Shown in pieces: positions 2,240 through 62,080 of a DNA stretch of 64,000 nucleotides. The stretch is taken from positions 71,296 through 135,295 of the forward strand of contig JBAZYN010000003.1 of the NCBI GenBank assembly GCA_041659325.1, read 5' to 3'. The position numbers and the translations under genes are program-made. Below the pieces are notes generated by a model that ran no database searches, had not been told where the DNA came from, and saw only the letters and a list, made by a program, of their open reading frames with translations. The number at the start of each line of letters is the position of its first letter. The first letter of the stretch is position 1. Origin of the DNA: Candidatus Shapirobacteria bacterium (lineage in GTDB: Bacteria > Patescibacteriota > Microgenomatia > UBA12405).

Positions 2240-3325
2240 TTATTCTAAATAATCCATGAGCTTTTTTCTACGGGAAGGGTGCCTTAATTTTCGCAGGGCT
2301 TTTGCCTCGATTTGACGAATACGCTCGCGGGTGACATTGAAAATCTTGCCGACTTCCTCGAGAGTTTTGGGGGTTTCCCCCATCAAACCAAAGCGGAGAG
2401 ATAAAACTTTTGATTCCCGCTCGTCGAGGCTATCGAGAACTTCCTCGATGGATTCGCGCAATAATTCTTTTGAAGTTTCTTCGTAGGGAGAGGGCTGGGT
2501 GGTGTCTTCGATAAAGTCACCTAAAAATGAGTCTTCATCGTCGCCGACCGGAGTGGCCAGAGAAGTAGTGTCCTGAGAGATCCGATAAATTTCTTCTACT
2601 TTTTCGATAGTAACCCCAACCTCTTCGGCGATTTCGTCGATGGTCGGCTCGCGGCCTAGTTTTTGGGTAAGGGCGCGGGTGGCTTTGTAAACTTTGTTGA
2701 TGGTTTCCACCATATGAACGGGAATACGGATGGTTTTGGCCTGGTCGGCGATAGCGCGGGTAATAGCCTGACGTATCCACCAGGTGGCATAGGTGGAAAA
2801 CTTGAAACCCCGGTGCCAATCAAATTTTTCGACAGCGCGCATAAGGCCTTGATTGCCTTCCTGAACCAAATCAAGAAAAGTCAAACCGCGGCCGATATAT
2901 TTTTTGGCAATGGAAACAACAAGCCTTAAATTGGCATTGATTAAGTCAGCCCGGGCGACCTGAGAACCTTTTTCGATTTCTTTGGCTAATCTGACCTCGT
3001 CTTCGAAAACCAAAAGATCGATTTTGCCAATCTCTTTGAGATACATGCGGACCGAGTCGATACTGCCTTTGGGAGACAGTAGGGCCAAAAGATCGGCGCT
3101 ATTGAGTTTTTGTTTTTCGGCCTCGATGGCTTCTTTGGATTCGACTTTGTCGAAAACATCGACACCACGCTCGAAAAGATAATTAAAAACATCATCTACC
3201 TGCTCAATATATTTTTCCGGCTCGGGAATAAGAGCGATGATTTCTTCGTTGGTAAGATAGTGGAGCTTTTTGGCCTGGGCGACTAGGGTTTGTTTTATCT
3301 TGGAAAAATCTAGGGTAGCTGGCAT
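2240..3325 (-). CDS. rpoD: RNA polymerase sigma-70 factor RpoD
   Basis: Region 2 [41 protein letters not shown]; region 4 [30 protein letters not shown]. Confidence 0.95.
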
Positions 3326-5726: not shown

Positions 5727-5821
5727 GTATTGGTATGATACAAAAAGATGGTGGTAAAAGCAAGAAAGGGACCGAAGGTGGGGAGAGACAAATAATTTTG
5801 TAATCAGTAATCGGTAAGAAA

Positions 5822-7000: not shown

Positions 7001-7400
7001 TGGTTAAGTATAGAGTCTAAAAGTCTTAAAGTCGAAAGTCTAAAGTTTAAAGCCAGCATAAACAAATTAATAATTAACAATTAACAGATTTGTATCTGTA
7101 ATCGGTAATCAGTAATTGGTAATTAGTAATCTGTAAACTGTAATTAGCCTTAGCTGTAAGCGAGTGCACTAAATCCCTCTTAAAATTTCAATTTGTCCCG
7201 CCCGTCGGACAGGCAGGAGCAATCTTAAAACAACTCTACTATTTCAATCCTGTAAGGATTGCTTCGTCGCCTGAAAGGCTTCTCGCAATGACGGGGGCGG
7301 AAGATTGCCACTCCTTCCCTTCAACTATGTTCAGGGCAAGCCCTTCGACAAGCTCAGGATAAACTAGCTCAGGGTCGCAATGACGGGGAAAAGGGAAATT
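7001..7400. repeat. Composite intergenic repeat region (9-mer tandem gtctNaaag units, GTAATN hexamer array, palindromic modules)
   Basis: atagagtctaaaagtcttaaagtcgaaagtctaaag (compare 61960-62080); gtaatcggtaatcagtaattggtaattagtaatctgtaa; block 7300-7390 matches 1-60 and 59940-60000. Confidence 0.8.
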
Positions 7401-10174: not shown

Positions 10175-10258
10175 TTATAACGAATTACGAATTAATAATT
10201 ACGAATTACGAATTATCAGGTAATCTGTAATTGGTAACCGGTAATCGGTAACCAGCTC
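10175..10258. repeat. GTAATN / AATTAC hexamer tandem array forming a long imperfect hairpin
   Basis: attacgaattaataattacgaattacgaatta...ggtaatctgtaattggtaaccggtaatcggtaacc. Confidence 0.75.
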
Positions 10259-10261
10259 AAT

Positions 10262-10421
10262 TAAATCCACCCCTATCCCCTCCTTTGAAGAAAGGAGGGG
10301 CACTACTCGTCATTGTGAATGAATAGAGGGAATGTGACGATCTCGTGTTTCTTGCCGTAAACCATGCCTGCCGGCAGGCAGGGATTGCCACTCCGCCAGT
10401 TGGCGGATCGCAATGACGGGG
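10262..10421. repeat. Rep135 composite element, copy 1 (carries an extra ccctgcctgccggcaggcaggg module)
   Basis: aaatccacccctatcccctcctttgaagaaaggaggggcactactc...gattgccactccgccagttggcggatcgcaatgacgg; other copies at 34454, 46075 and 49861, plus a partial at 30056. Confidence 0.85.
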
Positions 10422-10472: not shown

Positions 10473-10826
10473 ATGGCAGAAAATAAAGAAAGACTGGGGG
10501 TAGGTGAAATCGGCGGGAAGCAAGAGACGAGAATGGTGGACGTGGAGACAGCGGCCAGAGCACCATTGCCACGGGAAGTGGAATCGTGGATGGAAAAGGT
10601 GGAAAAAGACCAGACGGTGCAGAAAATTGTGAATGATGACAGGACAGGACAACCGGTGATGACACCGACAGCACCGACGGATCCGGTGATTCAACTACCG
10701 ATAACGAGAGGTACTTTTGCGGCAGGCTTTGGCAAGGCAATAAGCGATGCCGGAAGGTGGCTATCGGTTTTTATTTTCAGAGTGATTAAAATTAAGAAAG
10801 GAAAAGTTAAATTTAAAGACGAATGA
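10473..10826 (+). CDS. hypothetical small protein upstream of, and overlapping, the VirB4-like ATPase
   Basis: 117 aa, hydrophilic with a hydrophobic C-terminal tail; 4-nt overlap with the next start (ATGA). Confidence 0.5.
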   Translation: MAENKERLGVGEIGGKQETRMVDVETAARAPLPREVESWMEKVEKDQTVQKIVNDDRTGQPVMTPTAPTDPVIQLPITRGTFAAGFGKAISDAGRWLSVFIFRVIKIKKGKVKFKDE

Positions 10827-13156
10827 ACCCGGAAACTATTATCAGCCTGGTGACATCAATAATTGTATTTGCATTTATCGGGACGTTGGTGATCCTGCTT
10901 TTGGGATTTTTGGGGTATTTGCTGGTTTTAAGGTATAGATGGAGAGACAGAGAAGCCAAATCACTTGGGATGGTGACGCTGATGGTAGCAGTACCACAGG
11001 ATAATGAGATAAAAATTGATGCCATGGAGCAGATAATTAGCTCGTTTTCGACCATGTACAAAAGCGCCAAGTTTAAATTTTTGCAAACCTATGTAGCCCA
11101 ACCCAATTTATCGCTAGAGATTGTGGGAACGGCGCAAGACATTAGGTTTTATATTTGCACACCGAAAAAACTTCAGGATTTGGTGGAAAAACAGGTTTAT
11201 AGTGTTTATGCCGGGGCTGACGTAAGACAAGTGGATGAGCCAAATATATTTACTGAGGATGGGAAAGTGGAATATGTATGGTTGGCACTAAAAAAGCTGC
11301 CGCATTACCCTTTGAAAACATATAAGGAAATTCCGACTGACCCAATGGCGGCTGTAACTTCGGCTTTGTCAAAACTAAGTACCGGGGAAACGGTGGCGAT
11401 ACAATTGGTACTTTCGCCGACTGACGGCAGTTGGGCAAAGGCGGGGAGAAGCTTTATCAGCAGTACTAAAAAGTCGGAGGCAAACCCGGAGAAGGCCTCG
11501 TATAAAGTGGATGCAAGACAACTGGAGGCGGTGGAGAATAAGGCGGGAAGACAGGGCTTTGAAACGGTAATAAGGATAGTGTCGTGTGCCCCGAGCAGCG
11601 AGGTTGCGAAATTAAATATTTCGAATATTAAGGCATGCTTTGGCCAATTTGAATCACCGTGGAATAAACTGTCGTCTAAAAAAATGTATCTTAAGTCATT
11701 TTTTGTGGATGATTTTATCTATAAATATCCGGTGGTGTATTGGTTTAAAAACAAGACCATATTGTCGACAGATGAGATTGCATCGATTTTTCATTTTCCC
11801 AACAAATCTATTGAAACACCAAATATTTACTGGCTGAAAGCAAAAAAGGCACCGGCGCCGAATGAGGCTGTGCAGGAGGGGCTGTATATAGGCGACAACG
11901 TGTATCGAGGGATAACTAAAAAAGTGTGTATGACAGCATCGGACCGGCAAAGGCATTTTTATATCGTGGGACAAACAGGGGTGGGTAAATCGTGGCTTTT
12001 GGCAGACATGGCGCTACAAGATATTAAAGCCGGGAAGGGGGTGTGCTTTATTGATCCGCATGATACGTTTGAAAGCATATTGGAGAGGATTCCACCGGAG
12101 CGGGTGGAGGATGTGATTTATTTTGACCCGTCGATGGTGAACCGGCCGATGGGCTTTAATGTGATGGAATGTGAGAGAGAGGACCAGAAAGATTTTGTGA
12201 CTAGCTCGATTATTAACCTAATGTATAAACTGTATGATCCTTATAAAACCGGAATTGTGGGACCTAGGTTTGAACATGCAATAAGAAACATTATGTTGAC
12301 GGTGATGGCAGAGCCGGGGGCGACATTTATCGAGATTGTCCGGTGTCTGACCGATCCGACTTATGTGCAGGCAATGCTACCAAAGGTGAACGACCCGATG
12401 GTAAAAAGATATTGGACTGATCAAATCGCCCAAACTTCGGATTTTCATAAATCGGAGGTGTTGGACTATATCGTGTCAAAATTCGGCCGATTTATTACCA
12501 ACACGATGATGAGAAATATTATCGGGCAGTCGACGTCGTCGTTTAACTTTAGAAAAGCCATGGATGAGGGGAAAATATTGATTATTAATTTGGCCAAAGG
12601 GACAATTGGCGAGGAAAATTCGGCCTTTTTGGGATTGGTTTTAATCCCCAAAATTTTGATTGCGGCCATGAGCCGGCAGGATACGCCAGAGGCGAACCGG
12701 AAGGATTTTTATTTGTATGTGGATGAGTTTCAAAATTTTGCCACCCAGGATTTTGCCGTAATTTTGTCAGAAGCCAGAAAATACCACCTTAACTTGATCG
12801 TGGCCAACCAATTTATTTCACAGATGGATGATGAGGTAAAAAATGCCGTTTTCGGAAACGTAGGTACAATTTCGACTTTTAGGGTGGGAGTGGCCGATGC
12901 AGGGTTCTTGGTGCGGCAGTTTCAGCCGGAATTTAACGAACATGACCTTTTGAACCTGGGAACGGGAGAAATTTATATGAAGACAATGCTTAACGGTGTC
13001 CCCCAGTCACCATTCTCGGTGCGGGTGGCGGCGGTGGAAAAGAAAAAACCGGGGAACCCGAAACTGGCGGAGATGATAAAGCAGCTGTCGTCGATGAAAT
13101 ACGGCAGACCGAGAGAGATTGTGGAAGCGGAAATTGCCAAGAGAGCGAGATTCTAG
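10823..13156 (+). CDS. VirB4/VirD4-superfamily (T4SS/conjugation-type, AAA_10/DUF87-like) P-loop ATPase with an N-terminal TM helix
   Basis: Walker A GQTGVGKS near aa 385, Walker B FYLYVDEFQNF near aa 630, N-terminal TM; this architecture and motif spacing resemble VirB4/TrbE. Confidence 0.6.
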   Translation: MNPETIISLVTSIIVFAFIGTLVILLLGFLGYLLVLRYRWRDREAKSLGMVTLMVAVPQDNEIKIDAMEQIISSFSTMYKSAKFKFLQTYVAQPNLSLEIVGTAQDIRFYICTPKKLQDLVEKQVYSVYAGADVRQVDEPNIFTEDGKVEYVWLALKKLPHYPLKTYKEIPTDPMAAVTSALSKLSTGETVAIQLVLSPTDGSWAKAGRSFISSTKKSEANPEKASYKVDARQLEAVENKAGRQGFETVIRIVSCAPSSEVAKLNISNIKACFGQFESPWNKLSSKKMYLKSFFVDDFIYKYPVVYWFKNKTILSTDEIASIFHFPNKSIETPNIYWLKAKKAPAPNEAVQEGLYIGDNVYRGITKKVCMTASDRQRHFYIVGQTGVGKSWLLADMALQDIKAGKGVCFIDPHDTFESILERIPPERVEDVIYFDPSMVNRPMGFNVMECEREDQKDFVTSSIINLMYKLYDPYKTGIVGPRFEHAIRNIMLTVMAEPGATFIEIVRCLTDPTYVQAMLPKVNDPMVKRYWTDQIAQTSDFHKSEVLDYIVSKFGRFITNTMMRNIIGQSTSSFNFRKAMDEGKILIINLAKGTIGEENSAFLGLVLIPKILIAAMSRQDTPEANRKDFYLYVDEFQNFATQDFAVILSEARKYHLNLIVANQFISQMDDEVKNAVFGNVGTISTFRVGVADAGFLVRQFQPEFNEHDLLNLGTGEIYMKTMLNGVPQSPFSVRVAAVEKKKPGNPKLAEMIKQLSSMKYGRPREIVEAEIAKRARF

Positions 13157-13291
13157 GAAAAAACCCTTCCGTCCCGACTAAAGTCGGGACACCTTCCCTT
13201 GACAGAGCAGGCTAATACAAATTTATAATTCCTTAAGGCGGATGCCTTGCAATTTTTCTTTGGCTTCGATAAGCGGAAAATTTTTTCCTGA
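13157..13291. repeat. 135-bp insert flanked by an 18-bp direct repeat of the VirB4-like gene terminus (caagagagcgagattcta at 13138-13155 and 13292-13309)
   Basis: Contains hairpin gtcccgactaaagtcgggac and a ~60-bp segment (13215-13282) about 80% identical to the 3' end of the recombinase gene at 14182-14245. Confidence 0.75.
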
Positions 13292-13347
13292 CAAGAGAGC
13301 GAGATTCTAAGGGGGAATTTAAGAATTTTATTCGCCTACCCTATTTA

Positions 13348-13734
13348 CTAGGATTTTGGCCTTGAGTCGGAGAGACTTTGGGAATCAGGGTTTGTAATAT
13401 CTCGTGAAAAGACCTTAACTCTTCCCGAAATTAAACGGGCAATGCACTTGGATGGTTGTCCTTTTGTGTTTAAAAGGTAGAGATCGACTCTTTCTGGAGC
13501 TAACCGTGTGGCAGCGAAAGTGCCCGGGTGGTTCACTGCATACTGCTCGGCCATATTTGTCAGACCACTATTTGCAACCGAGCAAATTGTGCCGGGATCG
13601 GCGCCCCGATTGGCGATACCGCACATACCAATGTTAAACCCGCCTGGAATCCGATAACATGGATTCCCCGGATAAAAACAATAGGTATACAGTAATTGCA
13701 TTGGTGGAGTAACTTTTCTTTCTGGATCAGCCAT
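13348..13734 (-). CDS. Cys-rich small protein, paralog 1
   Basis: GMCGIANRGADPGTICSVANSGLTNMAEQY aligns to GLCGVSTPQDKGRTFCGRAENGLTTMANSY of the neighbouring ORF. Confidence 0.6.
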   Translation of the reverse strand: MADPERKVTPPMQLLYTYCFYPGNPCYRIPGGFNIGMCGIANRGADPGTICSVANSGLTNMAEQYAVNHPGTFAATRLAPERVDLYLLNTKGQPSKCIARLISGRVKVFSRDITNPDSQSLSDSRPKS

Positions 13735-13785
13735 ATTTTTATTTTATTTTTAAATTTATTATTCTTTTAATTTAATGTGGATGGA

Positions 13786-14163
13786 TTACCGGGTGATTTC
13801 TGGTATCGGAATCTGTTCTTTATTGTTGATGACTCTGCCTGAACGCAGTGTGGCTAACGTAGTAACTCGGTCATGACCAGCGACGGTACAAAGATCGACT
13901 TCTGTATCGTTTACGACAAATGCCGCTACGGGGAGAAGACCTAAATCTTGTCTGTGTGCGGCAAGGTAACTATTGGCCATTGTCGTTAGGCCATTTTCTG
14001 CACGGCCACAGAATGTCCTGCCCTTATCTTGGGGTGTGGAAACACCACATAGACCAATATCTTTATCTCTAAGACAGGCTGTCAATTTAAAACAAGCAGG
14101 AGTTGCTAAAATAACCGTTTTAGTTTGGTCGCCCGTTTTTGCTTCTGGTGAACCATTGGGCAT
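13786..14163 (-). CDS. Cys-rich small protein, paralog 2 (start codon 18 nt after the recombinase stop)
   Basis: Paralogous to 13348-13734; co-transcribed with the recombinase. Confidence 0.6.
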   Translation of the reverse strand: MPNGSPEAKTGDQTKTVILATPACFKLTACLRDKDIGLCGVSTPQDKGRTFCGRAENGLTTMANSYLAAHRQDLGLLPVAAFVVNDTEVDLCTVAGHDRVTTLATLRSGRVINNKEQIPIPEITR

Positions 14164-14181
14164 ATATTTTATTAATAAAAT

Positions 14182-15051
14182 TTATAATTCTTTTAATTTG
14201 ATGCCTTTGGATTCTTCTTTGGCTTCGATAAGCTCCATGTATTTTTCGGTGGTGGAAATGCGCTTGTGACCGACAATTTGGGAAACTACGTCGATGGGAA
14301 CGCCGGATTTTAATTGAAAAGCAATAAAAGTGTTTCGCAAGTCATTGACTTTGATACCCTTGATGTCGGCCTTGTTGAAATAGCGATTTAATAAACTTCT
14401 GATGTTACGGGCTAGAAGGTGACGGCCGGTTTTGGTAACAAAAACGCTTTTGGATTTGCTGTTGTAACGACCTTCATCGAGATATCTTTTTAGAGCTGAT
14501 TTGGCGGAATTGTTTAGAGGAACAGTGCGGACACTGTGACTTTCGTATGAGTCGATGATAATTTCATTGTCTTTGATGTTTTCCAACTTTAGATTTTCGA
14601 TTTCTTTGATCCTTAGACCGGCTTGAAGCATCAGCTCGACAATGGCGGTGGACCGGGCATCATTTCGGCAGGCGTCGCGCAGAGACCGGTATTCAATTGG
14701 TTTTAAAATTTTGGGGACATCATTTTCGTACTTGGGATGTTTTATTTCGGTGGAAGGATCGACAGAGATGAGGCCTTCATTTTTTAAAAAGGAAAAGAAA
14801 TTTTTGATGGAGTTTAGTTTTCGACTGACTGACTTGGCGGTATAGCCGTTTTTCATTAAATCTTTTTTGAAGTTGTCAATATCGGTGCCACGAACGGCAT
14901 CAACTCCGGTGATTTTTGACTGGGCCTTTAAAAAGTGGATCAGCTGATTAATATCACCTTTGTAGGCTACAATGGTGTTTGTGGACTTACCTTTTGTTAA
15001 AAGAGATTTGGTAAAAAGATCCAAGGTGGATTCAAGGGATAGATCGGGCAT
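14182..15051 (-). CDS. tyrosine site-specific recombinase, XerC/XerD-like
   Basis: C-terminal catalytic signature HSVRTVPL...LRNTFIAFQLKSGVPIDVVSQIVGHKRISTTEKYMEL (R..HxxR..Y); 289 aa. Confidence 0.85.
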   Translation of the reverse strand: MPDLSLESTLDLFTKSLLTKGKSTNTIVAYKGDINQLIHFLKAQSKITGVDAVRGTDIDNFKKDLMKNGYTAKSVSRKLNSIKNFFSFLKNEGLISVDPSTEIKHPKYENDVPKILKPIEYRSLRDACRNDARSTAIVELMLQAGLRIKEIENLKLENIKDNEIIIDSYESHSVRTVPLNNSAKSALKRYLDEGRYNSKSKSVFVTKTGRHLLARNIRSLLNRYFNKADIKGIKVNDLRNTFIAFQLKSGVPIDVVSQIVGHKRISTTEKYMELIEAKEESKGIKLKEL

Positions 15052-15123
15052 GTTGTTTATAATAGTTTACAAATAATGACTTATAGTACCATTATTAGGG
15101 ATAATATACAATATATGTAACCG

Positions 15124-15429
15124 ATGAAATTAATAAGTAATATTTTATTTGGCCTGGGACTGGGGATAATGATAATCTTGAGTCTGGGCAACGTGTGGAG
15201 ACAATATTCCCTTTTGAGGGAGGCAGGGAAAGAAAATAAGGCGCTGGAGGATAAGGTAAGTAGTTTGCAGGATGAAAATAGAAAACTTTTGAGAACTATT
15301 GATTATGCTACCAGTAGCGCTTTTATGGAGAGACAAGCAAGGATACTACTGGGAGTGGGAACCAGTAGGGATTTTTGGATAAAAGGCCTTAAGGAGAAGA
15401 AATACACTGATGAGTTTTTGACTAGATAA
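15124..15429 (+). CDS. septum formation initiator (FtsB/DivIC family)
   Basis: N-terminal TM, coiled coil LEDKVSSLQDENRKLLRTI, MERQARILLG motif. Confidence 0.6.
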   Translation: MKLISNILFGLGLGIMIILSLGNVWRQYSLLREAGKENKALEDKVSSLQDENRKLLRTIDYATSSAFMERQARILLGVGTSRDFWIKGLKEKKYTDEFLTR

Positions 15430-15472
15430 TGCCGATTTTATGTGCTAGAATCCAACAGTCGAATCAGCAACA

Positions 15473-15542
15473 TGCGGGGTAGTGTACGGCTGCACGTGAG
15501 GCTCATAATCTCACAGGCCGGGTTCAACTCCCGGCCCCGCAA
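15473..15542 (+). tRNA. tRNA-Met (CAU), initiator-like
   Basis: tgcgggg...ggctcataatctcac...ggttcaactcccggccccgca; closely resembles E. coli tRNAfMet (CGCGGGG...GGGCTCATAACCC...GGTTCAAATCCGGCCCCCGCAACCA); CCA not encoded. Confidence 0.75.
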
Positions 15543-15610
15543 CATTTCACTTGGTAATCGGTAACCAGTAATTGGTAATTGGTAATAAGAAAATGTATCG
15601 GTTTTACTTG

Positions 15611-15639
15611 TTGACAGAAGCGAAAGGCGAAGTTAGAAT
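15611..15639 (+). promoter_or_regulatory. Sigma-70-type promoter (TTGACA, 17 nt, TAGAAT)
   Basis: ttgaca at 15611-15616, 17-nt spacer, tagaat at 15634-15639. Confidence 0.5.
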
Positions 15640-15645
15640 GACTAG

Positions 15646-15716
15646 CGATCTTGGAAACGAGATTTTGCACCCAAATTTTGAAATAGAAAGGTCCTCATTA
15701 ACCTGAGGACTTTTTT
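15646..15716 (+). ncRNA. Candidate small RNA (~70 nt) bounded by a consensus promoter and an intrinsic terminator
   Basis: Predicted TSS ~7 nt after the -10; ends with hairpin gtcctca-ttaacc-tgaggac followed by TTTTTT; no ORF. Confidence 0.35.
15689..15716 (+). terminator. Rho-independent terminator
   Basis: 7-bp GC-containing stem, 6-nt loop, T6 tract. Confidence 0.6.
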
Positions 15717-15719
15717 ATT

Positions 15720-16040
15720 GGAAAATCAAAACCCACTTTTAAATAAAACCCTAACCCTACCCTTTCCCCCACCAAAGGCGGGCAGGCTTGACAGGGCAAG
15801 GGGGAATAAAAATCCAAATCCCTCTTTAATTCTCCCTTTGACCCACCTGCCGGACGAGCTGGTCTTCCTTTGGCCCTCCTACGCCACCGACTTCGCCAAA
15901 GCTACGGCGGGCAAGCAAGGGAGAATTATAAAAATAAAAGAAACTCGATATATTTGGTATAATCACCCTAGTTTTTGGCTCGCCTACGGTAAACCTACGG
16001 CGGGCGAGGCCCTCCCCGTAAGGCTACGGAAGGGCTGGAA
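15720..16040. repeat. Mosaic repeat block upstream of the tRNAs
   Basis: Modules cccttgacagggcaaggg, aaatccctctttaattctccctttgac, cctacgccaccgacttcgccaaagctacggcgggcaag (compare 1-110); includes a TGgTATAAT extended -10 at 15955-15963. Confidence 0.75.
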
Positions 16041-16043
16041 TAT

Positions 16044-16117
16044 GGCAGGGTAGCTCAGCTGGTTAGAGCGTAGCATTCATAACGCTAAGGTCGCGGGTCC
16101 GAGCCCCGCCCCTGCTA
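16044..16117 (+). tRNA. tRNA(CAU), elongator Met or Ile2 (lysidine)
   Basis: ggcagggtagctcagctggttagagc-gtagcattcataacgcta-aggtc-gcgggtccgagccccgc-ccctgct-a; Ile-like backbone. Confidence 0.8.
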
Positions 16118-16202
16118 CAAACAAAACCCACCCGCCCTTCGACAAGCTCAGGGCACCCTCCCTTGAAAAAGGAGGGAAAAGAGGAAAGTTAAAAATTAAT
16201 TA

Positions 16203-16276
16203 GGGCATGTAGCTCAGTTGGTTAGAGCATCGATCTTATAAGTCGAGGGTCCATGGTCCGAGTCCATGCATGCCCA
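16203..16276 (+). tRNA. tRNA-Ile (UAU)
   Basis: gggcatgtagctcagttggttagagc-a-tcgat-cttataa-gtcga-gggtc-catgg-tccgagt-ccatg-catgccc-a; 7-nt anticodon loop cTTATAAa gives anticodon TAT. Confidence 0.65.
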
Positions 16277-16322
16277 CAGTGGGTGGAAAACCTAAATTAA
16301 TTTTTATTTATTTTTCCAAAAT

Positions 16323-17509: not shown

Positions 17510-18720
17510 CCAGGCAGATTGGGAGTTAGAATGCTTTTTGTTTTCGTCCTGTGCTTTTTGGGCCTGGACTCATCAGATCCGGAGAAACCGGATAAACACA
17601 CATCCGACCCACCTGGTGGCTATAAAAAACGCCACCAGGCAGGTCGGGGAACTCGATAGTGCTTGGCCCTCAGGGTCCGAAATTCACCCTAGAGGGCCTC
17701 GGACGCGTGGGCGTCGGTGCTACGGGGTGTAGCAGTGCGTCTGGGCCCAGAGGGTGTTCGACCTATCGACCAACTGGACATCCCAAGGGGGCTGTCGATT
17801 GTGACCGGGGGCGACGGTAAACTCGAACTCATTGTTCGACAACCATCGGTAGGAACACGGTTCCACACCCTCCCACAAAAGCAAGGCCCAATCCTCACCC
17901 GAGCTCCGCGGTAGCGGGGGCAAGTTGACCCGAATGCGGACGCTCCAGGGCACGTGGTGCCGGAAAGAGAAGACCACGCCGGGCCAACCCTCATGGTTGG
18001 GCCTGAATTCACGGGTCTCAACCTCCGTACCGCCGACGAACAAGGTCGCACTCGCGCTGCCCGGGCAGCCCTGGCATAGGACGCCAAGGAAGGAACGGCT
18101 GTTCCTTGGGGGCGGGGGGGGCGGTGGGGTGACCGGGGGGGTCAACGTGACCGGCGGGTTGGTCGGAGTGGCCGTGATCAGCGTCATCGGCGGGGTCGGG
18201 GTGGCCGAAGGGGTGGCCGAGGTCGTGGGCGTGTTGGTCGGGGTGGCCGAAGGGGTGGCCGTGGTCGTGGGGGTCGGCGACGGGGTGGCCGTGCGGGTCG
18301 GGGTACGGGTCGGCATGCAGTGGCGGATGTTCTCCTCCTGGATATTGATGGTGGAGGAATTCGCCACAATGCCATTCGGCCCTTCGAAGCGGATGCTGTA
18401 GACGCCCGGCTGCGCGATCCTCGTGAAGTGGGGGTCCTTCCCGGGTTTGGTGCAGCCTTCGCTGAGCGTGATCGACCGAGAGGAAACGACCTGGCCATCC
18501 CTAATGAGGGACAGAGTACCAGTGACCTTTTCGGTCGAGCATACACGGGCCCACATCGTCAGATCCTCGTAGCAGTCCCACCCTTCGGCGGGAATGGTGA
18601 CGACCGGCGTCTCGGCGGACACGACCGAAGAGTCCCGGAGGGATACTCCCACCAGGACGGCGAGGGCGATGATGCCCAAGAGCAACGCGGCGGACACGAT
18701 CTTTTTCCCGTTCATGAGAT
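17510..18720. other. High-GC (~60-65%) island in a ~42% GC background
   Basis: Abrupt composition shift immediately after the stop at 17507 and before 18720; the antisense strand is full of spurious long ORFs, as is typical for high-GC DNA. Confidence 0.8.
17720..18715 (-). CDS. secreted/membrane-anchored protein with a Pro-Thr-rich linker (high-GC, foreign-looking gene)
   Basis: Signal/TM MNGKKIVSAALLLGIIALAVLVGV; PT linker PTRTPTRTATPSPTPTTTATPSATPTNTPTTSATPSATPTPP...PPPPPPP; C-terminal Cys-containing domain. Confidence 0.7.
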   Translation of the reverse strand: MNGKKIVSAALLLGIIALAVLVGVSLRDSSVVSAETPVVTIPAEGWDCYEDLTMWARVCSTEKVTGTLSLIRDGQVVSSRSITLSEGCTKPGKDPHFTRIAQPGVYSIRFEGPNGIVANSSTINIQEENIRHCMPTRTPTRTATPSPTPTTTATPSATPTNTPTTSATPSATPTPPMTLITATPTNPPVTLTPPVTPPPPPPPRNSRSFLGVLCQGCPGSASATLFVGGTEVETREFRPNHEGWPGVVFSFRHHVPWSVRIRVNLPPLPRSSGEDWALLLWEGVEPCSYRWLSNNEFEFTVAPGHNRQPPWDVQLVDRSNTLWAQTHCYTP

Positions 18721-18888
18721 CTCCTTTTCGGATACTTTTGAAAAGAACGCACTATCGATATGTCAACGAACATGTCTTCCGACAACTTTTCAACCAAGCT
18801 AAATGGCTGATTTGTCGTCGAAAAACAGAAAACAGTAAGGACGGGGGTAATATATCAAAATATGATGGGTTTGTCAATAATATAGGAT

Positions 18889-24733: not shown

Positions 24734-25903
24734 ATGGAAATAATCAAAATTAACGACAGTTACGAAGAAATTATTAAAAGGACGGCTGAAACGATAAGGG
24801 GCGGCGGACTGGTGATATTCCCATCGGATACGGTATATATTTTGGCGATGGATCCGACAAATGTTGATGCGACAAAGAAACTTTTGGCGTTTAAAAACCG
24901 CTGGGTGGGAAAGGCAATTTCGGTGGCAGTGGCGGATACTAAAATGGCCAAAGATTATGTAGAACTATCGGAAAACGCTGAAAATATATATGCTAACTTG
25001 CTACCCGGACCATTTACGGTAGTAAGCAAGGGAAAACATAAAATGGCGAGCGGGATTGAGGCGGAAAACGGGACTTTGGGGATAAGAATCCCCGATAACA
25101 AATATATTCACGATTTGGTGACAGCCATTGGGAAACCGGTAACGGCGACATCGGCTAATCTGTCGGGGCGGACACCGCATTATTCTATCGAGAGCTTTTT
25201 GAAAACATTGTCGCAGAAAAAGAGGGACATGATTGATTTGATCGTTGATGCGGGGAAACTGCGGTTTAATAAGCCGTCGACAGTTATTGATGCCACTGAG
25301 CCGGAAATCAAAATTTTGAGGCGAGGCGACCTGATTACTGCTAATTCTAAAACTTTGATATCCAAATCGGAAAAGGAAACGGGGAAGATTGCGGAGTTTA
25401 TATTGAATAAATCCCTAAATCAAAATCTACCCCTATCCCCTCCTTTGACGAAAGGAGGGGCACTGCCATTAGTATTTGGACTGAGTGGAGATTTGGGATG
25501 CGGAAAGACAGTGTTTTCGAGGAGTGTGGGGAAAATATTGGGGGTTAAAGAAAAAATCACTAGCCCGACATTTGTGATTATGAATGAGTATGATATCAGT
25601 CTGAAAGTCCAAAAGTCTGAAAGTCTGAAAGTTGGACAGCCGGTTAGTCTGAAAGTCCAAAAGTCTGAAAGTCTGAAAGCCGGGAAGTTTTTACATTTTG
25701 ATTTGTATAGAATCGGAGGCCAGTTTGAATTGGAAGAAATAAAATTTTGGGAACAGTTCAAACCGGGAACCGTGGCTTGTATTGAGTGGCCGGAAAATAT
25801 GGGAAAGGAAAATTTTGAGAAATTGAAAAAGATGACGAATTATAAGGCAATAAACTTTGAATATGTGAACGAGAGAACAAGAAAGATAAGTTATGAGATG
25901 TAA
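24734..25903 (+). CDS. L-threonylcarbamoyladenylate synthase (TsaC/YrdC domain) fused to tRNA t6A protein TsaE
   Basis: YrdC domain ...VTATSANLSGR...; TsaE P-loop GLSGDLGCGKTVF, SPTF, HFDLYRI; two in-frame repeat insertions in the TsaE half. Confidence 0.85.
   Translation: MEIIKINDSYEEIIKRTAETIRGGGLVIFPSDTVYILAMDPTNVDATKKLLAFKNRWVGKAISVAVADTKMAKDYVELSENAENIYANLLPGPFTVVSKGKHKMASGIEAENGTLGIRIPDNKYIHDLVTAIGKPVTATSANLSGRTPHYSIESFLKTLSQKKRDMIDLIVDAGKLRFNKPSTVIDATEPEIKILRRGDLITANSKTLISKSEKETGKIAEFILNKSLNQNLPLSPPLTKGGALPLVFGLSGDLGCGKTVFSRSVGKILGVKEKITSPTFVIMNEYDISLKVQKSESLKVGQPVSLKVQKSESLKAGKFLHFDLYRIGGQFELEEIKFWEQFKPGTVACIEWPENMGKENFEKLKKMTNYKAINFEYVNERTRKISYEM
25423..25463. repeat. Palindromic module aaatctacccctatcccctcctttgacgaaaggaggggcac inserted in frame in tsaE
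   Basis: Same module opens the Rep135 copies; encodes NQNLPLSPPLTKGGAL just before the TsaE P-loop. Confidence 0.9.
25598..25679. repeat. 9-bp tandem repeat (agtctgaaag/gtccaaaag units) inserted in frame in tsaE
   Basis: Encodes LKVQKSESLKVGQPVSLKVQKSESLKA between EYDIS and GKFLHFDLYR; the same unit family is intergenic at 7003-7050 and 61960-62080. Confidence 0.85.
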
Positions 25904-28574: not shown

Positions 28575-29783
28575 GTGTTTTTCGATTGGATTTCGCGGGA
28601 AGAGACAAGGCCAGGGCGGTATAATAGGCGGATGATTGTACTGGCAATAGAAACAAGTTGTGACGATACGTGTGCGGCGGTGCTAGAAAATGACCGGATA
28701 TTGTCGAACGTGGTTTCGTCACAAATTAACCTACATGCCCAGTGGGGCGGAGTGGTGCCAGATATTGCCAAAAGGGCGCATATGGAAAGAATTATGCCGG
28801 TGGTGATGACAGCTTTAAAAAGGGCAAAATCCCTCTCGGCTTCGCCGCTTCTCCCTTTGACAAGGGAGATGGAAAAATTGATGAATGAAATTGATGTGAT
28901 TGCGGTGACGGTGGGACCCGGGCTAGCGCCCGCTTTGGGAGTGGGAGTGAATACTGCCAAAGAACTGGCAATAAAATACAAAAAAAAACTGGTGGCGGTA
29001 AACCATGTGGAGGGGCATATTTTGTCCAACCTGGCAAAAAACAGGAAGGGAAAACCGGAGAGAGAGATCGAGTACCCTGCCCTAGTACTGACGGTTTCGG
29101 GAGGACATACCAAGATCATTTTGATGAATCAAAATGATCAATTTTCAATTTCTAATTCTCAATTTTTAAAAAATAAAAAAGTACCAAATAAAATAGGTGG
29201 TTTTCAATATCAGGTTGTTGGAGAAACGCTGGATGATGCGGCGGGAGAGGCACTGGATAAGGCAGCAAAATTGATGGGGCTGGGGTATCCCGGAGGGCCG
29301 ATAATTGAGAGGTTGGCGGAGGGCGGAGACCAGAATTTTCTTGAATTACCCAGACCAATGGCAGACAAAAAGATTCTTGACTACAGTTTTTCGGGGCTGA
29401 AAACTAGCTTTTATTACAAGATTAAGGACTGGCCCAAGGATAAGGTGGCCCAAAATTTGCATGACTTGGCGGCAAGCTATCAGGCGGCAGTGTTTGAGAT
29501 GCTTCTCAGAAAATTTAAACTGGCAATTGAAAAATGTGAGCCAAAAAGTCTGATGGCCTGCGGCGGAGTGATGGCAAATGTGACATTAAGAAAACAATTG
29601 CGGATGTTGGCGAGAAAATTTAAGTTGCCGATTTTTATGCCATATACTAAGATTTTGAATACGGATAATGCCGGGATGATTGGGGTGGCGGGATATTTTA
29701 AGGCAATGAGGGGTGAGTTTGTAAAAGATATTGAAGGTTTGGACAGAAACCCGAGAGCACAATTAACAATTAAATTTTTGTAA
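28575..29783 (+). CDS. tsaD: tRNA N6-adenosine threonylcarbamoyltransferase TsaD
   Basis: MIVLAIETSCDDTCAA (likely true start ~28632), HVEGH, SGGHT, DDAAGEALDKAAKLMGL; contains the repeat-derived insert KSLSASPLLPLTRE and an AT-rich low-complexity insert NQNDQFSISNSQFLKNKKVPNK. Confidence 0.9.
   Translation: MFFDWISREETRPGRYNRRMIVLAIETSCDDTCAAVLENDRILSNVVSSQINLHAQWGGVVPDIAKRAHMERIMPVVMTALKRAKSLSASPLLPLTREMEKLMNEIDVIAVTVGPGLAPALGVGVNTAKELAIKYKKKLVAVNHVEGHILSNLAKNRKGKPEREIEYPALVLTVSGGHTKIILMNQNDQFSISNSQFLKNKKVPNKIGGFQYQVVGETLDDAAGEALDKAAKLMGLGYPGGPIIERLAEGGDQNFLELPRPMADKKILDYSFSGLKTSFYYKIKDWPKDKVAQNLHDLAASYQAAVFEMLLRKFKLAIEKCEPKSLMACGGVMANVTLRKQLRMLARKFKLPIFMPYTKILNTDNAGMIGVAGYFKAMRGEFVKDIEGLDRNPRAQLTIKFL
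28827..28870. repeat. Palindromic repeat module inserted in frame inside tsaD (opposite orientation to the valS copy)
   Basis: 44/44 identical to 21938-21981. Confidence 0.9.
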
Positions 29784-29784
29784 T

Positions 29785-30170
29785 CAGTAATCTGTAATTG
29801 GTAATTAAGTCAAAACCCACCCTTTAATTCCCTCCCTTGACCCTCCTACACCATGGCTACGGAGGGGCGAGAGGGAGGGCGGAACATTGCAATCCAAATC
29901 CCTCTAAATCTCCCTTTGACAAGGGAGACTTCAAAAACCCCTCACCCATTCGGGAGCTCCCCTTGACCCGCCTGAGGCGGGTAAACCGGCAGGCAGGCCT
30001 ATCCCCTCCTTTAACCCTCCTACGCCATGGCTACGGAAGGGCGATGGAAAGGGAGAGCACTGCTGATTATCGCGAATGAATAGGGTGTGAGGTGGTTTTG
30101 TATTTATTACCGTAATGATTGCCACGCTACGCTCGCAATGACGCGTGGATCCCAATGACAGTTTGTTGAG
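29785..30170. repeat. Large mosaic repeat block including a partial Rep135 variant (30056-30160)
   Basis: GTAATN hexamers; ccctacaccatggctacggagggg twice; aaatccctctaaatctccctttgacaagggagacttcaaaaacccc (compare 48980); cgcaatgacg. Confidence 0.8.
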
Positions 30171-36826: not shown

Positions 36827-36834
36827 GTTGGTAA

Positions 36835-36965
36835 TTGGTAACCTGTAATTGGTAACTGGTAATTAAGACAGTTAATTTTAACAGGCAGAATGGGGTTATT
36901 CTATGAGAAGATGGAGGACACTTGTAATCAGTAATCGGCAATCAGTAACCTGTAATTGGGAACTG
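36835..36965. repeat. GTAATN hexamer arrays (two blocks)
   Basis: ggtaattggtaacctgtaattggtaactggtaatt ... gtaatcagtaatcggcaatcagtaacctgtaattgggaactgggaatt. Confidence 0.75.
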
Positions 36966-41611: not shown

Positions 41612-41720
41612 GTTTAAACCCTTACCCTTCCCTTTCCCTTGACAGGGCAAGGGAAAAATTCAAAAGAATATAACATAAGTAATAATATAATTACCAATTA
41701 CGAATTATCAATTAAATCAG
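41612..41720. repeat. Module cccttacccttccctttcccttgacagggcaagggaaaaa plus an AATTAC hexamer array
   Basis: Compare 5170-5200; the hexamer array is rendered as spurious N-terminal codons of the next ORF. Confidence 0.7.
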
Positions 41721-46703: not shown

Positions 46704-46912
46704 CTAAACAGAATCTGCGATCTTTTGTAACCTGTAATTGGTAATCAGTAATTGGTAAAAACCTAGAAGCAACATGAGATTAGAAAATCTATGTATGGGG
46801 TGTAAACATAATTGCTGTGACGGGTTTTTTGGGTGAAAGAATTTACTTTTCCACCGTCCAATTTTGTTAAGGTAGTGTGGAACGATAAGACAAAGCTGGA
46901 AACAACTTTTTT

Positions 46913-47424: not shown

Positions 47425-48339
47425 TTACTGCATTTCCTCGGAGATGGGCTTCACACAAACTAGACCTCCGGCGCAGGTGAGATTAACGGTTTGGTACTGA
47501 CCGGGATCCGGATTGTAGTTGGTGCAGAAAGCGCCATTGCCGGAACAAGTATAGGTGGGAGCCGGAGTGGAGGTGGGTCTAGTGGTGGGAACAGCGGTAG
47601 GAATAGGCCTGATACAAACCAGACCTGAGGCACAGGTAAGATTTAGGGTTTGATACTGACCGGGGTTTGGATTGTTGTTTGAGCAGAAAGCGCCATTGCC
47701 GGAACAAGTATAGGTGGGAGCCGGAGTGGAGGTGGGTCTAGTGGTGGGAACAGCGGGAGAAATAGGCCTTATGCAAACTTGATTATTGGCACAAGTTAGA
47801 TTAAGAGTCTGATAATTAGTGGAATCCGGATTGAAGTTGGTGCAGAAAGCGCCATTACCGGAACAAGTATAGGTGGGAGCGGAGGTGGGCCGGGTGGTGG
47901 GGACAGCGGGCGGAGTATCGCCACAAGCGGAACCACTACAGACACCGTTTTTGCAGGAAAGACCTGAACGACAACCAAACCAAGAAGTGCATCTTTGGCC
48001 GCAGCTACCACGAGAAGAATTGGTGGGATTTATTTTACAGATTATATCGGTATACCGATTGCGATAGGTGGAATCTTGGTGACAGGGGGAACTAGCGTCC
48101 CGACCGGAAGTGTAGCTATATGTCTGAGAGGGAGAACCTGAACAATTTGTATTGCTAGCATTATAAACAGAAACACGGCAGCTGTATTGAAGAGCGGCCT
48201 GATTTTCGACAACACGGCGTTGACCGATATAGCGTATCCCGGCGAAGAGACCGAGAGCGGTGACAACTAAACCAGTGAGGACAGCAACCTGGGCAAGGCC
48301 GGATTGCATTTTTTTTGTGGAAAAAGCGTTTATAACCAT
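47425..48339 (-). CDS. secreted Cys-rich protein with three ~46-aa tandem repeats
   Basis: TM/signal; 3x (AVPTTRPTSTPAPTYTCSGNGAFCTN.NPDPGQYQTLNLTCA.GLVCIRPI); ~138-bp nucleotide tandem repeats. Confidence 0.75.
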   Translation of the reverse strand: MVINAFSTKKMQSGLAQVAVLTGLVVTALGLFAGIRYIGQRRVVENQAALQYSCRVSVYNASNTNCSGSPSQTYSYTSGRDASSPCHQDSTYRNRYTDIICKINPTNSSRGSCGQRCTSWFGCRSGLSCKNGVCSGSACGDTPPAVPTTRPTSAPTYTCSGNGAFCTNFNPDSTNYQTLNLTCANNQVCIRPISPAVPTTRPTSTPAPTYTCSGNGAFCSNNNPNPGQYQTLNLTCASGLVCIRPIPTAVPTTRPTSTPAPTYTCSGNGAFCTNYNPDPGQYQTVNLTCAGGLVCVKPISEEMQ

Positions 48340-61954: not shown

Positions 61955-62080
61955 TAGTATAGAGTCTAAAAGTCTCAAAGTCTAAAAGCCATGCCTGCCG
62001 GCAGGCAGGTCTGAAAGTTTCAAAGTCGAAAAGTCGAAAGTCTCAAAGTTTCAAAGTCTAAAAGTTAAAAGACTGAAAAT
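61955..62080. repeat. 9-bp tandem (gtctNaaag) array interrupted by ccatgcctgccggcaggcagg
   Basis: agagtctaaaagtctcaaagtctaaaag...gtctgaaagtttcaaagtcgaaaagtcgaaagtctcaaagtttcaaagtctaaaagttaaaag. Confidence 0.85.

Follow-up and report, generated by a model that had tools for sequence, protein, structure and literature searches.

It is well established that some integrative elements restore the 3' end of the gene they target, examples being e14 and phage 21 in the icd gene of Escherichia coli, as well as islands residing in transfer RNA (tRNA) and transfer-messenger RNA (tmRNA) genes. Homology-facilitated illegitimate recombination, on the other side, is known from naturally transformable Acinetobacter, Streptococcus, and Pseudomonas stutzeri. 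Further related cases are documented: SGI1 inserts at the 3' end of trmE (PMC6531882), the term homology-facilitated illegitimate recombination occurs in PMC6382021, and archaeal SSV-type 'suicidal' integrases possess an attachment (att) site inside the integrase gene, so that integration splits the gene, recombinases with an att site in their own gene being stated as exclusive to archaea in the corresponding review (PMC8371274). In this study, the junction between a P-loop ATPase gene and a convergent Xer-like tyrosine recombinase gene was analyzed in a metagenome-assembled genome (MAG) of Candidatus Shapirobacteria (Patescibacteria/Candidate Phyla Radiation, CPR). The locus resides on a 141-kb contig, of which a stretch of 64,000 nucleotides (nt), referred to as the window, was considered; coordinates are counted from its first letter. 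The 3' ends of both genes were found to recur in the DNA separating them. With slightly better than even confidence, these repeats are regarded as scars of repeated, homology-anchored DNA insertion between two convergent core genes, in the course of which the old gene tails would have been displaced.

The ATPase gene (777 amino acids, aa; 10823-13156, + strand), an open reading frame (ORF) with Pfam and NCBIfam matches, converges on the recombinase gene (289 aa; 14182-15051, - strand), which features the Pfam Phage_integrase and SAM-like domains; the intergenic gap measures 1025 nt. Across the whole window, two exact copies of the 18-mer CAAGAGAGCGAGATTCTA were located (13138-13155 and 13292-13309), and a tolerance of up to three mismatches yielded no further one, 0.02 matches being expected by chance at this tolerance. 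Direct repeat 1 (DR1; 13135-13155, + strand) is the functional ATPase terminus, comprising the codons for ..AKRARF and the TA of the TAG stop, and DR2 (13289-13309, + strand) is a non-functional copy encoding ..DKRARF with a TAA stop. The two are identical at 20/21 nt, including the 18/18 exact core, and their start-to-start spacing is 154, in line with the sequence-only reading, from which an 18-bp repeat of the ATPase terminus at this distance had been reported. To assess the significance of such relics, both gene tails were aligned to the intergenic gap by Smith-Waterman, and the scores were compared with a null of 200 shuffles; in the window, they topped all 200 shuffles, and DR2 scored 37 as compared to a null maximum of 25. 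By eye, the ATPase repeat could be drawn out to approximately 33 nt (AAGCGGAAA.., allowing an indel of 8 nt), an extension that is conceivable but lacks statistical support.

The recombinase 3' end is present in three copies, all on the - strand. Copy A (14178-14233) is the functional one and ends with ..LIEAKEESKGIKLKEL and the stop codon. Relic C (13219-13274), putatively a displaced recombinase 3' end, consists of 52 nt encoding LIEAKEKLQGIRLKEL and 4 nt past the stop; it has kept the reading frame and the stop codon (13223-13225), and its identity to copy A amounts to 82% over 56 nt. Relic B (13752-13787, 36 nt) is located past the stop of one orphan gene, Cys2, and ahead of the start of another, Cys1. 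It reads ..SIHIKLKE followed by two stops and matches 14178-14213 at 30/36 nt (83%). A copy of the recombinase end with about 80% identity and a third, shorter one had already been noticed in the sequence-only reading, where the matching gene end was placed at 14182-14245 and the shorter copy at 13745-13790; both copies are real, but their positions had to be corrected to 14178-14233 and 13752-13787, respectively.

Read along the recombinase strand, the parts follow in the order recombinase, A, Cys2, B, Cys1, a 38-nt spacer, DR2, a 14-nt filler, C, a 63-nt hairpin spacer, and DR1, representing two head-to-tail units (ATPase tail, filling, recombinase tail) with one novel joint. The joint, read directly, is the filler GGAAAATTTTTTCC (13275-13288) between relic C and DR2, which possibly shows AAGC/GCTT microhomology at its edge and weak further homology to either gene. 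The DR-flanked segment is 133 nt long and, besides the filler and the hairpin spacer, contains only the 56-nt recombinase-tail fragment. This 63-nt spacer (spacer X; 13156-13218) carries the 8-bp-stem hairpin that had also been seen in the sequence-only reading (GTCCCGAC-TAAA-GTCGGGAC; 13171-13190; unique in the window, z = -2.4). Neither the hairpin nor the spacer was found in any of the fetched loci searched except L001, an identical contig introduced below. On the minus strand, a run of six T (U in the transcript) begins 7 nt past the stem, and the hairpin, which received no call from the terminator scanner, may once have terminated transcripts coming from the recombinase side.

The filling next to the recombinase is composed of the two orphan genes named above. 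Cys1 (128 aa; 13348-13734, - strand; WC841_05285) features four conserved cysteines and occupies the distal cassette, and Cys2 (125 aa; 13786-14163, - strand) starts 18 nt past the recombinase stop. At 29% protein identity (E 5e-7) they are paralogues, as had been proposed, albeit not close ones; a codon-guided alignment of their nucleotide sequences gave 44% identity, with 38% at third positions. A word-indexed database search with Cys1 returned Cys1 as the sole match, and a profile search, run against 1.84 billion representatives, recovered, apart from Cys1 and Cys2, a repeat protein (P0123) whose similarity was judged spurious. Pfam, NCBIfam, and PADLOC yielded no match to either protein, and the AlphaFold model reached a predicted local distance difference test (pLDDT) value of 50. 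A single cassette after the recombinase, encoding a Cys-rich orphan of 81 aa (C..CC....C..C), was observed in locus L058 (8338-8583, - strand), the protein having no detectable similarity to Cys1 or Cys2.

To place the locus in context, it was compared with fetched loci (L001-L098), among them 80 related genome loci of the Microgenomates type. Both genes are visible, and their convergent pairing is kept, in 39 of these 80 loci across Microgenomates-type lineages, so the recombinase is a conserved core-genome neighbor of the ATPase. The closest ATPase orthologues (77-81% identical) were found in Shapirobacteria-like MAGs. The ATPase carries DUF87/HerA-like, FtsK-like, and VirD4/TraD-like signatures (Pfam, NCBIfam), and DUF8128 is annotated on its relatives; of the label 'VirB4-like' given to it earlier, the P-loop ATPase part was borne out, whereas the VirB4 identity gave way to a HerA/FtsK- and VirD4/TraD-like one with DUF87. 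The recombinase, for which 3148 homologues were listed and whose relatives are named 'XerD' in the data sources, scored 162 bits for XerD and 159 bits for XerC against NCBIfam, both values being below the equivalog cut-offs of approximately 330. In most of the more distant Microgenomates relatives, a tRNA-Ile(TAT) gene is situated between the ATPase and the recombinase; in the clade of the window, it is found beyond recombinase-DivIC-tRNA-Met-tRNA-Met (16203-16277; region 15473-16277), and this shift is an older rearrangement of the neighborhood. The two tRNA-Met genes are separated by about 500 nt of non-coding, repeat-containing DNA (15544-16043).

Within the clade, defined as genomes with a recombinase at least approximately 75% identical to that of the window, empty and filled junctions were distinguished. 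In seven genomes (L002, L003, L085, L086, L087/88, L089, and L097/98), the last 4-6 nt are common to the ATPase and recombinase ORFs, both stop codons being contained in a TTATAA/TTTAAA palindrome; their recombinases are 76-90% identical to that of the window, L085 being the closest (90%). In eight genomes (the window, L004, L006, L035, L058, L073, L082, and L094), the junction holds 0.2-1.5 kb, with a different set of orphan ORFs in each. Seven of these eight loci feature a small orphan ORF, co-oriented with the recombinase, that starts between a few and about 40 nt past the recombinase stop, the exception being L094, whose inserted genes share the orientation of the ATPase. Overlapping ORFs are the most parsimonious ancestral state of the clade, and the ATPase-recombinase junction appears to be a recurrent insertion point. 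Just past the recombinase stop of L084 (recombinase 89% identical), at 2913-3047, a palindromic GTCATTGCGAGGAGTGAAACGACGAAGCAATCC element followed by a second GC-rich inverted repeat, CCCTCCTTTCGTCAAAGGAGGG, was observed; a CCCCTCCTTTGAAGAAAGGAGGGG hairpin similar to the one in L084 occurs in the window at approximately 10278-10301.

Relics were confirmed by the shuffling approach in the window and in two further genomes, L082 and L004. L082, L083, and L091 (recombinase 89% identical) possess a gene for a 261-aa orphan after the recombinase. There, this gene is followed by a copy of the recombinase tail (58 nt, 98%) that diverges only in its last 8 nt, and beyond this copy a 78-aa ORF and then the ATPase end follow; the samples of L082 are ERZ27248961 and ERZ27248937. 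In L004, the tail of the other gene is affected: a 375-aa orphan gene begins at the ATPase stop (TAATG, the ATG overlapping the new stop), and the last eight codons plus stop of the ATPase are copied behind it (22/24 by BLAST; about 25/28 nt including the stop when aligned by eye). The scars in L082 and L004 arose independently of those in the window. All relics end 0-4 nt beyond the stop codon of the copied gene. Their joint-side ends vary, lying at -36 (B), -56 (C), and -65 (L082) for the recombinase and at -21 (window) and -28 (L004) for the ATPase, and a comparison of the joints among the events revealed no common motif.

The recombinase tails of the window also differ in their affinities. 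Relic C has the codons CGC-CT(T/C) (GIRLKEL) found in the three closest relatives, L085, L082, and L084, and in functional tail A, whose final codons read AAA TTA AAA GAA TTA TAA, their place is taken by AAA-TTA (GIKLKEL), which is shared with less closely related members of the clade. Correspondingly, the first 833 nt of the recombinase gene show affinity with L085/L082/L084 and the last 37 nt with L058/L087/L003, this switch being associated with Fisher p values of 2.5e-4 to 0.03 for comparators chosen post hoc. The gene is accordingly described as a mosaic whose last 37 nt would be of different ancestry, the evidence being supportive rather than conclusive. Between A and C, the first 19 nt are identical (19/19), and the next 37 nt agree at 27 positions. 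Since such unevenness is improbable under a uniform identity of 73% (probability of the 19/19 run, approximately 0.003), a recombination breakpoint is likely to lie inside the A/C repeat. Relic C looks like the resident recombinase tail because it adjoins the real ATPase end and carries the GIRLKEL codons of the closest relatives. Relic B (30/36) is too conserved, in comparison with the 44% identity of the adjoining Cys genes (P ~2e-6), for a neutral spacer co-duplicated with them; up to its displacement, it probably belonged to a recombinase gene that was working and constrained at the protein level. The refuting condition named in the sequence-only reading, a tandem duplication of the Cys cassette as the sole explanation of the similarity, fails on the same figures, and the second ATPase terminus is present in a separate assembly as well.

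Starting from ORFs overlapping by 4-6 nt, where inserted DNA must leave both tails complete, the following course of events is proposed. The conserved tail of a flanking gene would be where incoming DNA recombines; this DNA would likely have been taken up from related bacteria already featuring small genes at this junction. The incoming tail (A) would become the functional end, and the resident one would be pushed downstream as a dead relic, B representing an older displaced tail and C the original resident tail. DR2 would be the stub of the donor's ATPase tail with which the incoming fragment ended, and the hairpin spacer and relic C may be the remains of the previous junction. One crossover would have been homologous and of the RecA type, within the gene tail, the other end being joined illegitimately at the 14-nt filler. 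As for the pathway, which we infer along with the source of the DNA, homology-facilitated illegitimate recombination, single-crossover (Campbell-type) integration of a circularized fragment, or a small tandem duplication of the junction with subsequent replacement of one copy may be envisaged; these three routes would give the same observed map and cannot be told apart by it. Selection would account for the scars at this junction, since overlapping ORFs permit only insertions that leave both ends complete. Patescibacteria have been reported to retain genes for homologous recombination and DNA-uptake machinery (PMC12455944). Serial integration or duplication, one of the interpretations offered in the sequence-only reading, is supported by the order of the parts, the empty junction in relatives, and the relics in two genomes.

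Several observations weigh against this homology-anchored insertion model. The protein searches (1.84 billion representatives) did not reveal a donor genome with Cys1 or Cys2, and, because these are orphans, import is deduced from the mosaic tail only; the comparators of the mosaic test, moreover, were picked after inspection of the data, with 10-15 informative sites. A same-species strain with an empty junction was not found. Five filled relatives (L006, L035, L058, L073, and L094) lack a significant relic in the Smith-Waterman comparison with 200 shuffles, L006 showing one borderline ATPase-tail match. The sole homologue found for the L082 cassette gene (L090, 55% identity) is not located beside a recombinase, and L090 was rejected as the donor context of this cassette. 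Replacement by a linear fragment cannot place the illegitimate joint (-56) upstream of the crossover (approximately -37), and therefore a circular intermediate, sister-chromosome exchange, or a two-step history has to be assumed. Finally, the 19-nt A/C block is lineage-specific and poorly explained by one-step import from a distant donor; it requires gene conversion, prior tandem duplication, or a closely related donor.

A site-specific alternative assigns the insertions to the recombinase itself, which would act at its own 3' end (core approximately TAARGAATWATAAATTT) and insert circular, promoterless cassettes downstream. We consider this unlikely, and the accompanying proposal that A, B, and C represent hybrid att sites, in a system resembling integrons or Xer-exploiting elements (IMEX), is unlikely to the same degree. 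A tyrosine recombinase gene is situated exactly at the recurrent insertion point, three recombinase-tail copies bound the cassettes of the window and one bounds the L082 cassette, the stop-side edges of the copies coincide at 0-4 nt from the stop codon, and a co-directional orphan ORF follows soon past the recombinase stop in seven filled loci (not in L094). On the other hand, the joint-side edges differ (-36, -56, and -65) and share no motif, five filled relatives are devoid of repeats, and the duplication of the ATPase tail in the window and in L004 is left unexplained by a site in the recombinase gene. The shared core of the recombinase tails corresponds to the conserved K-L-K-E-L-stop codons and an AT-rich spacer. 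Synonymous constraint, measured as the fraction of identical codons among pairs encoding the same amino acid in 11 clade genomes, was 0.49-0.50 in the last 12-19 codons as compared to 0.48-0.53 elsewhere, the tail thus showing no DNA-level constraint beyond coding. For these reasons (variable joints, absence of a common motif and of synonymous constraint, duplication of ATPase tails), the earlier suggestion of att-like sites is not supported.

Integron- or dif-related features did not favor site-specific capture either. The recombinase scored 61 bits with the integron-integrase model TIGR02249 (cut-off 265) and 22.5 with PRK15417 (cut-off 435). A palindromic attC-like or an 11-6-11 dif-like structure common to A, B, and C was not detected; by eye, copy A forms an 11-5-11 imperfect palindrome that is not common to B and C. 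No inverted-repeat pair was reported at the cassette boundaries in the window, the boundary repeats being collinear copies of the recombinase tail. GC skew is positive throughout the 64 kb (0.13-0.32), with no switch in the window, so that the locus is not in the terminus position expected for dif. Based on the missing common palindrome, synonymous constraint, and skew switch, a dif-like site was rejected. A bolder version, according to which the Shapirobacteria recombinase captures promoterless orphan cassettes at the last codons of its own gene in an integron-like, self-targeting 'tail-capture', is slightly more doubtful still. If it were true, it would be new for bacteria and represent the bacterial counterpart of the archaeal recombinases whose own gene harbors the att site, and A, B, C, and the copy in L082 would be hybrid att sites.

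A purely local history, in which slipped or illegitimate recombination duplicated the junction in tandem once or twice and divergence and deletion followed without any foreign DNA, has a similarly small probability, as does the assignment of its units to the ATPase tail with intergenic DNA and the recombinase tail on the one hand and to the recombinase tail with a Cys gene on the other. A tandem duplication that created a single novel joint would produce exactly this head-to-tail order, the two Cys genes are paralogues, and the identical 19-nt A/C block is lineage-specific, all of which would fit. However, the interiors of the units are unrelated, a 63-nt hairpin spacer and 870-nt Cys cassettes sharing no similarity. 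Functional tail A departs from the clade-typical CGC-CTT codons that the dead relic keeps, the conservation of relic B far exceeds that of the Cys genes with which it would have been duplicated, and the repeats in L082 and L004 flank genes that are not duplicated.

The remnant of an integrative element with an Xer-like integrase, inserted into the 3' end of the ATPase gene with DR1 and DR2 as attL and attR, was judged very unlikely, and equally so its supposed deletion down to 133 nt, by which the integrase 3' end and a terminator would have been left. Direct repeats of 18/18 at a conserved gene end with a rebuilt gene are the classic signature of such elements: the ATPase ORF is intact next to its repeat, an integrase-tail fragment adjoins one repeat, and the segment in L004 is likewise flanked by ATPase-tail repeats; the recombinase tail has been rebuilt as well, with its 19/19 block. 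This block and the clade-typical ending, however, make relic C resemble the tail of the resident gene. The L004 insert lacks an integrase, an intact element was not present at the junction in any of the 39 of 80 loci showing both genes, and the 18-mer found no match in the viral contig collection. No mobility-related Pfam or PADLOC matches were obtained for Cys1, Cys2, or the L082 and L004 inserts. A degenerate recombinase-tail pattern produced two matches among the viral contigs, neither of them similar to the recombinase or the ATPase, and these were discarded.

An assembly artefact, i.e., a chimeric join of strain variants, conceivable for a MAG region that varies between related strains, is hardly credible, since the identical sequence was obtained in a separate assembly, the repeats are short and diverged (82-95%), unlike the long identical ones that mislead assemblers, all ORFs are intact, and like scars exist in unrelated samples (L082 with L083 and L091; L004). 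The separate assembly is the Logan assembly of run SRR18595301 (L001, 2776 bp), which is 100% identical to 12722-15497 of the window and in which the second ATPase terminus reappears. The locus arrangement is not peculiar to a single assembly, the reads possibly being those behind the MAG, too.

Further repeats were observed in the window. Tandem arrays of 7 nt (GGTAATY/GTAATTG type, 3-7 units) occupy at least nine apparently intergenic sites, nearly all on the + strand (5799-5817, 7094-7144, 10219-10251, 15551-15586, 29780-29804, 36828-36864, 36924-36962, and 46726-46758), with 10199-10217 and 41691-41709 on the - strand; the pattern gave 24 matches against 0.05 expected. Similar short heptamers in tandem are found in cyanobacteria. 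The arrays at 10219 and 15551 were considered as the boundaries of a larger mobile element, an idea that was rejected, the same arrays being present at at least nine intergenic sites in the window. Other 7-8-nt arrays are ACGAATT (10180-10215), AAGTCTA (7006-7052), AGTCTGAA (25598-25679), and GTCTAAAA (62009-62071). A GC-rich patch at 17600-18800 (0.60-0.72 as compared to about 0.44 for the genome) harbors a 331-aa ORF (17720-18715, - strand) with a Pro/Thr-rich linker and tandem repeats of 30 and 42 nt (18197-18304); it could be foreign DNA or encode a low-complexity surface protein. In addition, a 159-nt tandem repeat (2.7 copies, 83% identity; 47455-47884) lies inside a minus-strand ORF (47425-48339).

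If the homology-anchored insertion model is true, the locus documents stepwise how a minimal CPR genome acquires new genes between two essential ones that overlap; a fresh gene tail would arrive with every insertion, and the old one would stay behind as a datable scar. It would, moreover, provide sequence-level evidence of homology-anchored DNA import in an uncultured phylum thought to depend on uptake. The clade-wide junction with its turnover of orphan genes lends itself to studies on where such genes originate and on their flux.

On present evidence, the locus features a recombination scar of a known type in a new variant, not a new molecular system. As in the integrative elements that rebuild their target gene, the insert brings substitute last codons, by which the target gene stays intact, and the displaced end is left as a short pseudo-copy across the insert, giving rise to direct repeats of the gene terminus. 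Here, however, the repeat-flanked segments contain no integrase, repeat lengths and joints vary, both convergent genes serve as targets, and the inserts consist of one or two orphan genes rather than of a phage or island. Homology-facilitated illegitimate recombination, putative in this phylum, has in common with the locus a conserved flank as anchor, the other end being joined at microhomology or filler, as well as mosaic genes and variable joints. Classical events of this kind usually replace or delete recipient DNA, whereas the resident stretch was kept twice here, and therefore a circular or two-step route is needed.

Integron arrays and IMEX/pdif systems likewise comprise a tyrosine recombinase gene beside small, promoterless, mostly orphan genes and related short repeats. 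In contrast to integrons, the recombinase of the window lacks the integron-integrase signature (61 vs. 265 bits), and its cassettes are located downstream of and co-directional with it, while an integron array is divergent from intI. The repeat is the coding tail of the recombinase itself, with neither a palindromic attC nor a 28-bp dif architecture, and, unlike in IMEX/pdif systems, the locus is not at a skew switch. Finally, as with the SSV-type integrases, the recombination events map inside a tyrosine recombinase gene; in the Shapirobacteria locus, however, this gene is intact, only its last 36-65 nt are duplicated, and catalysis by the recombinase is putative.

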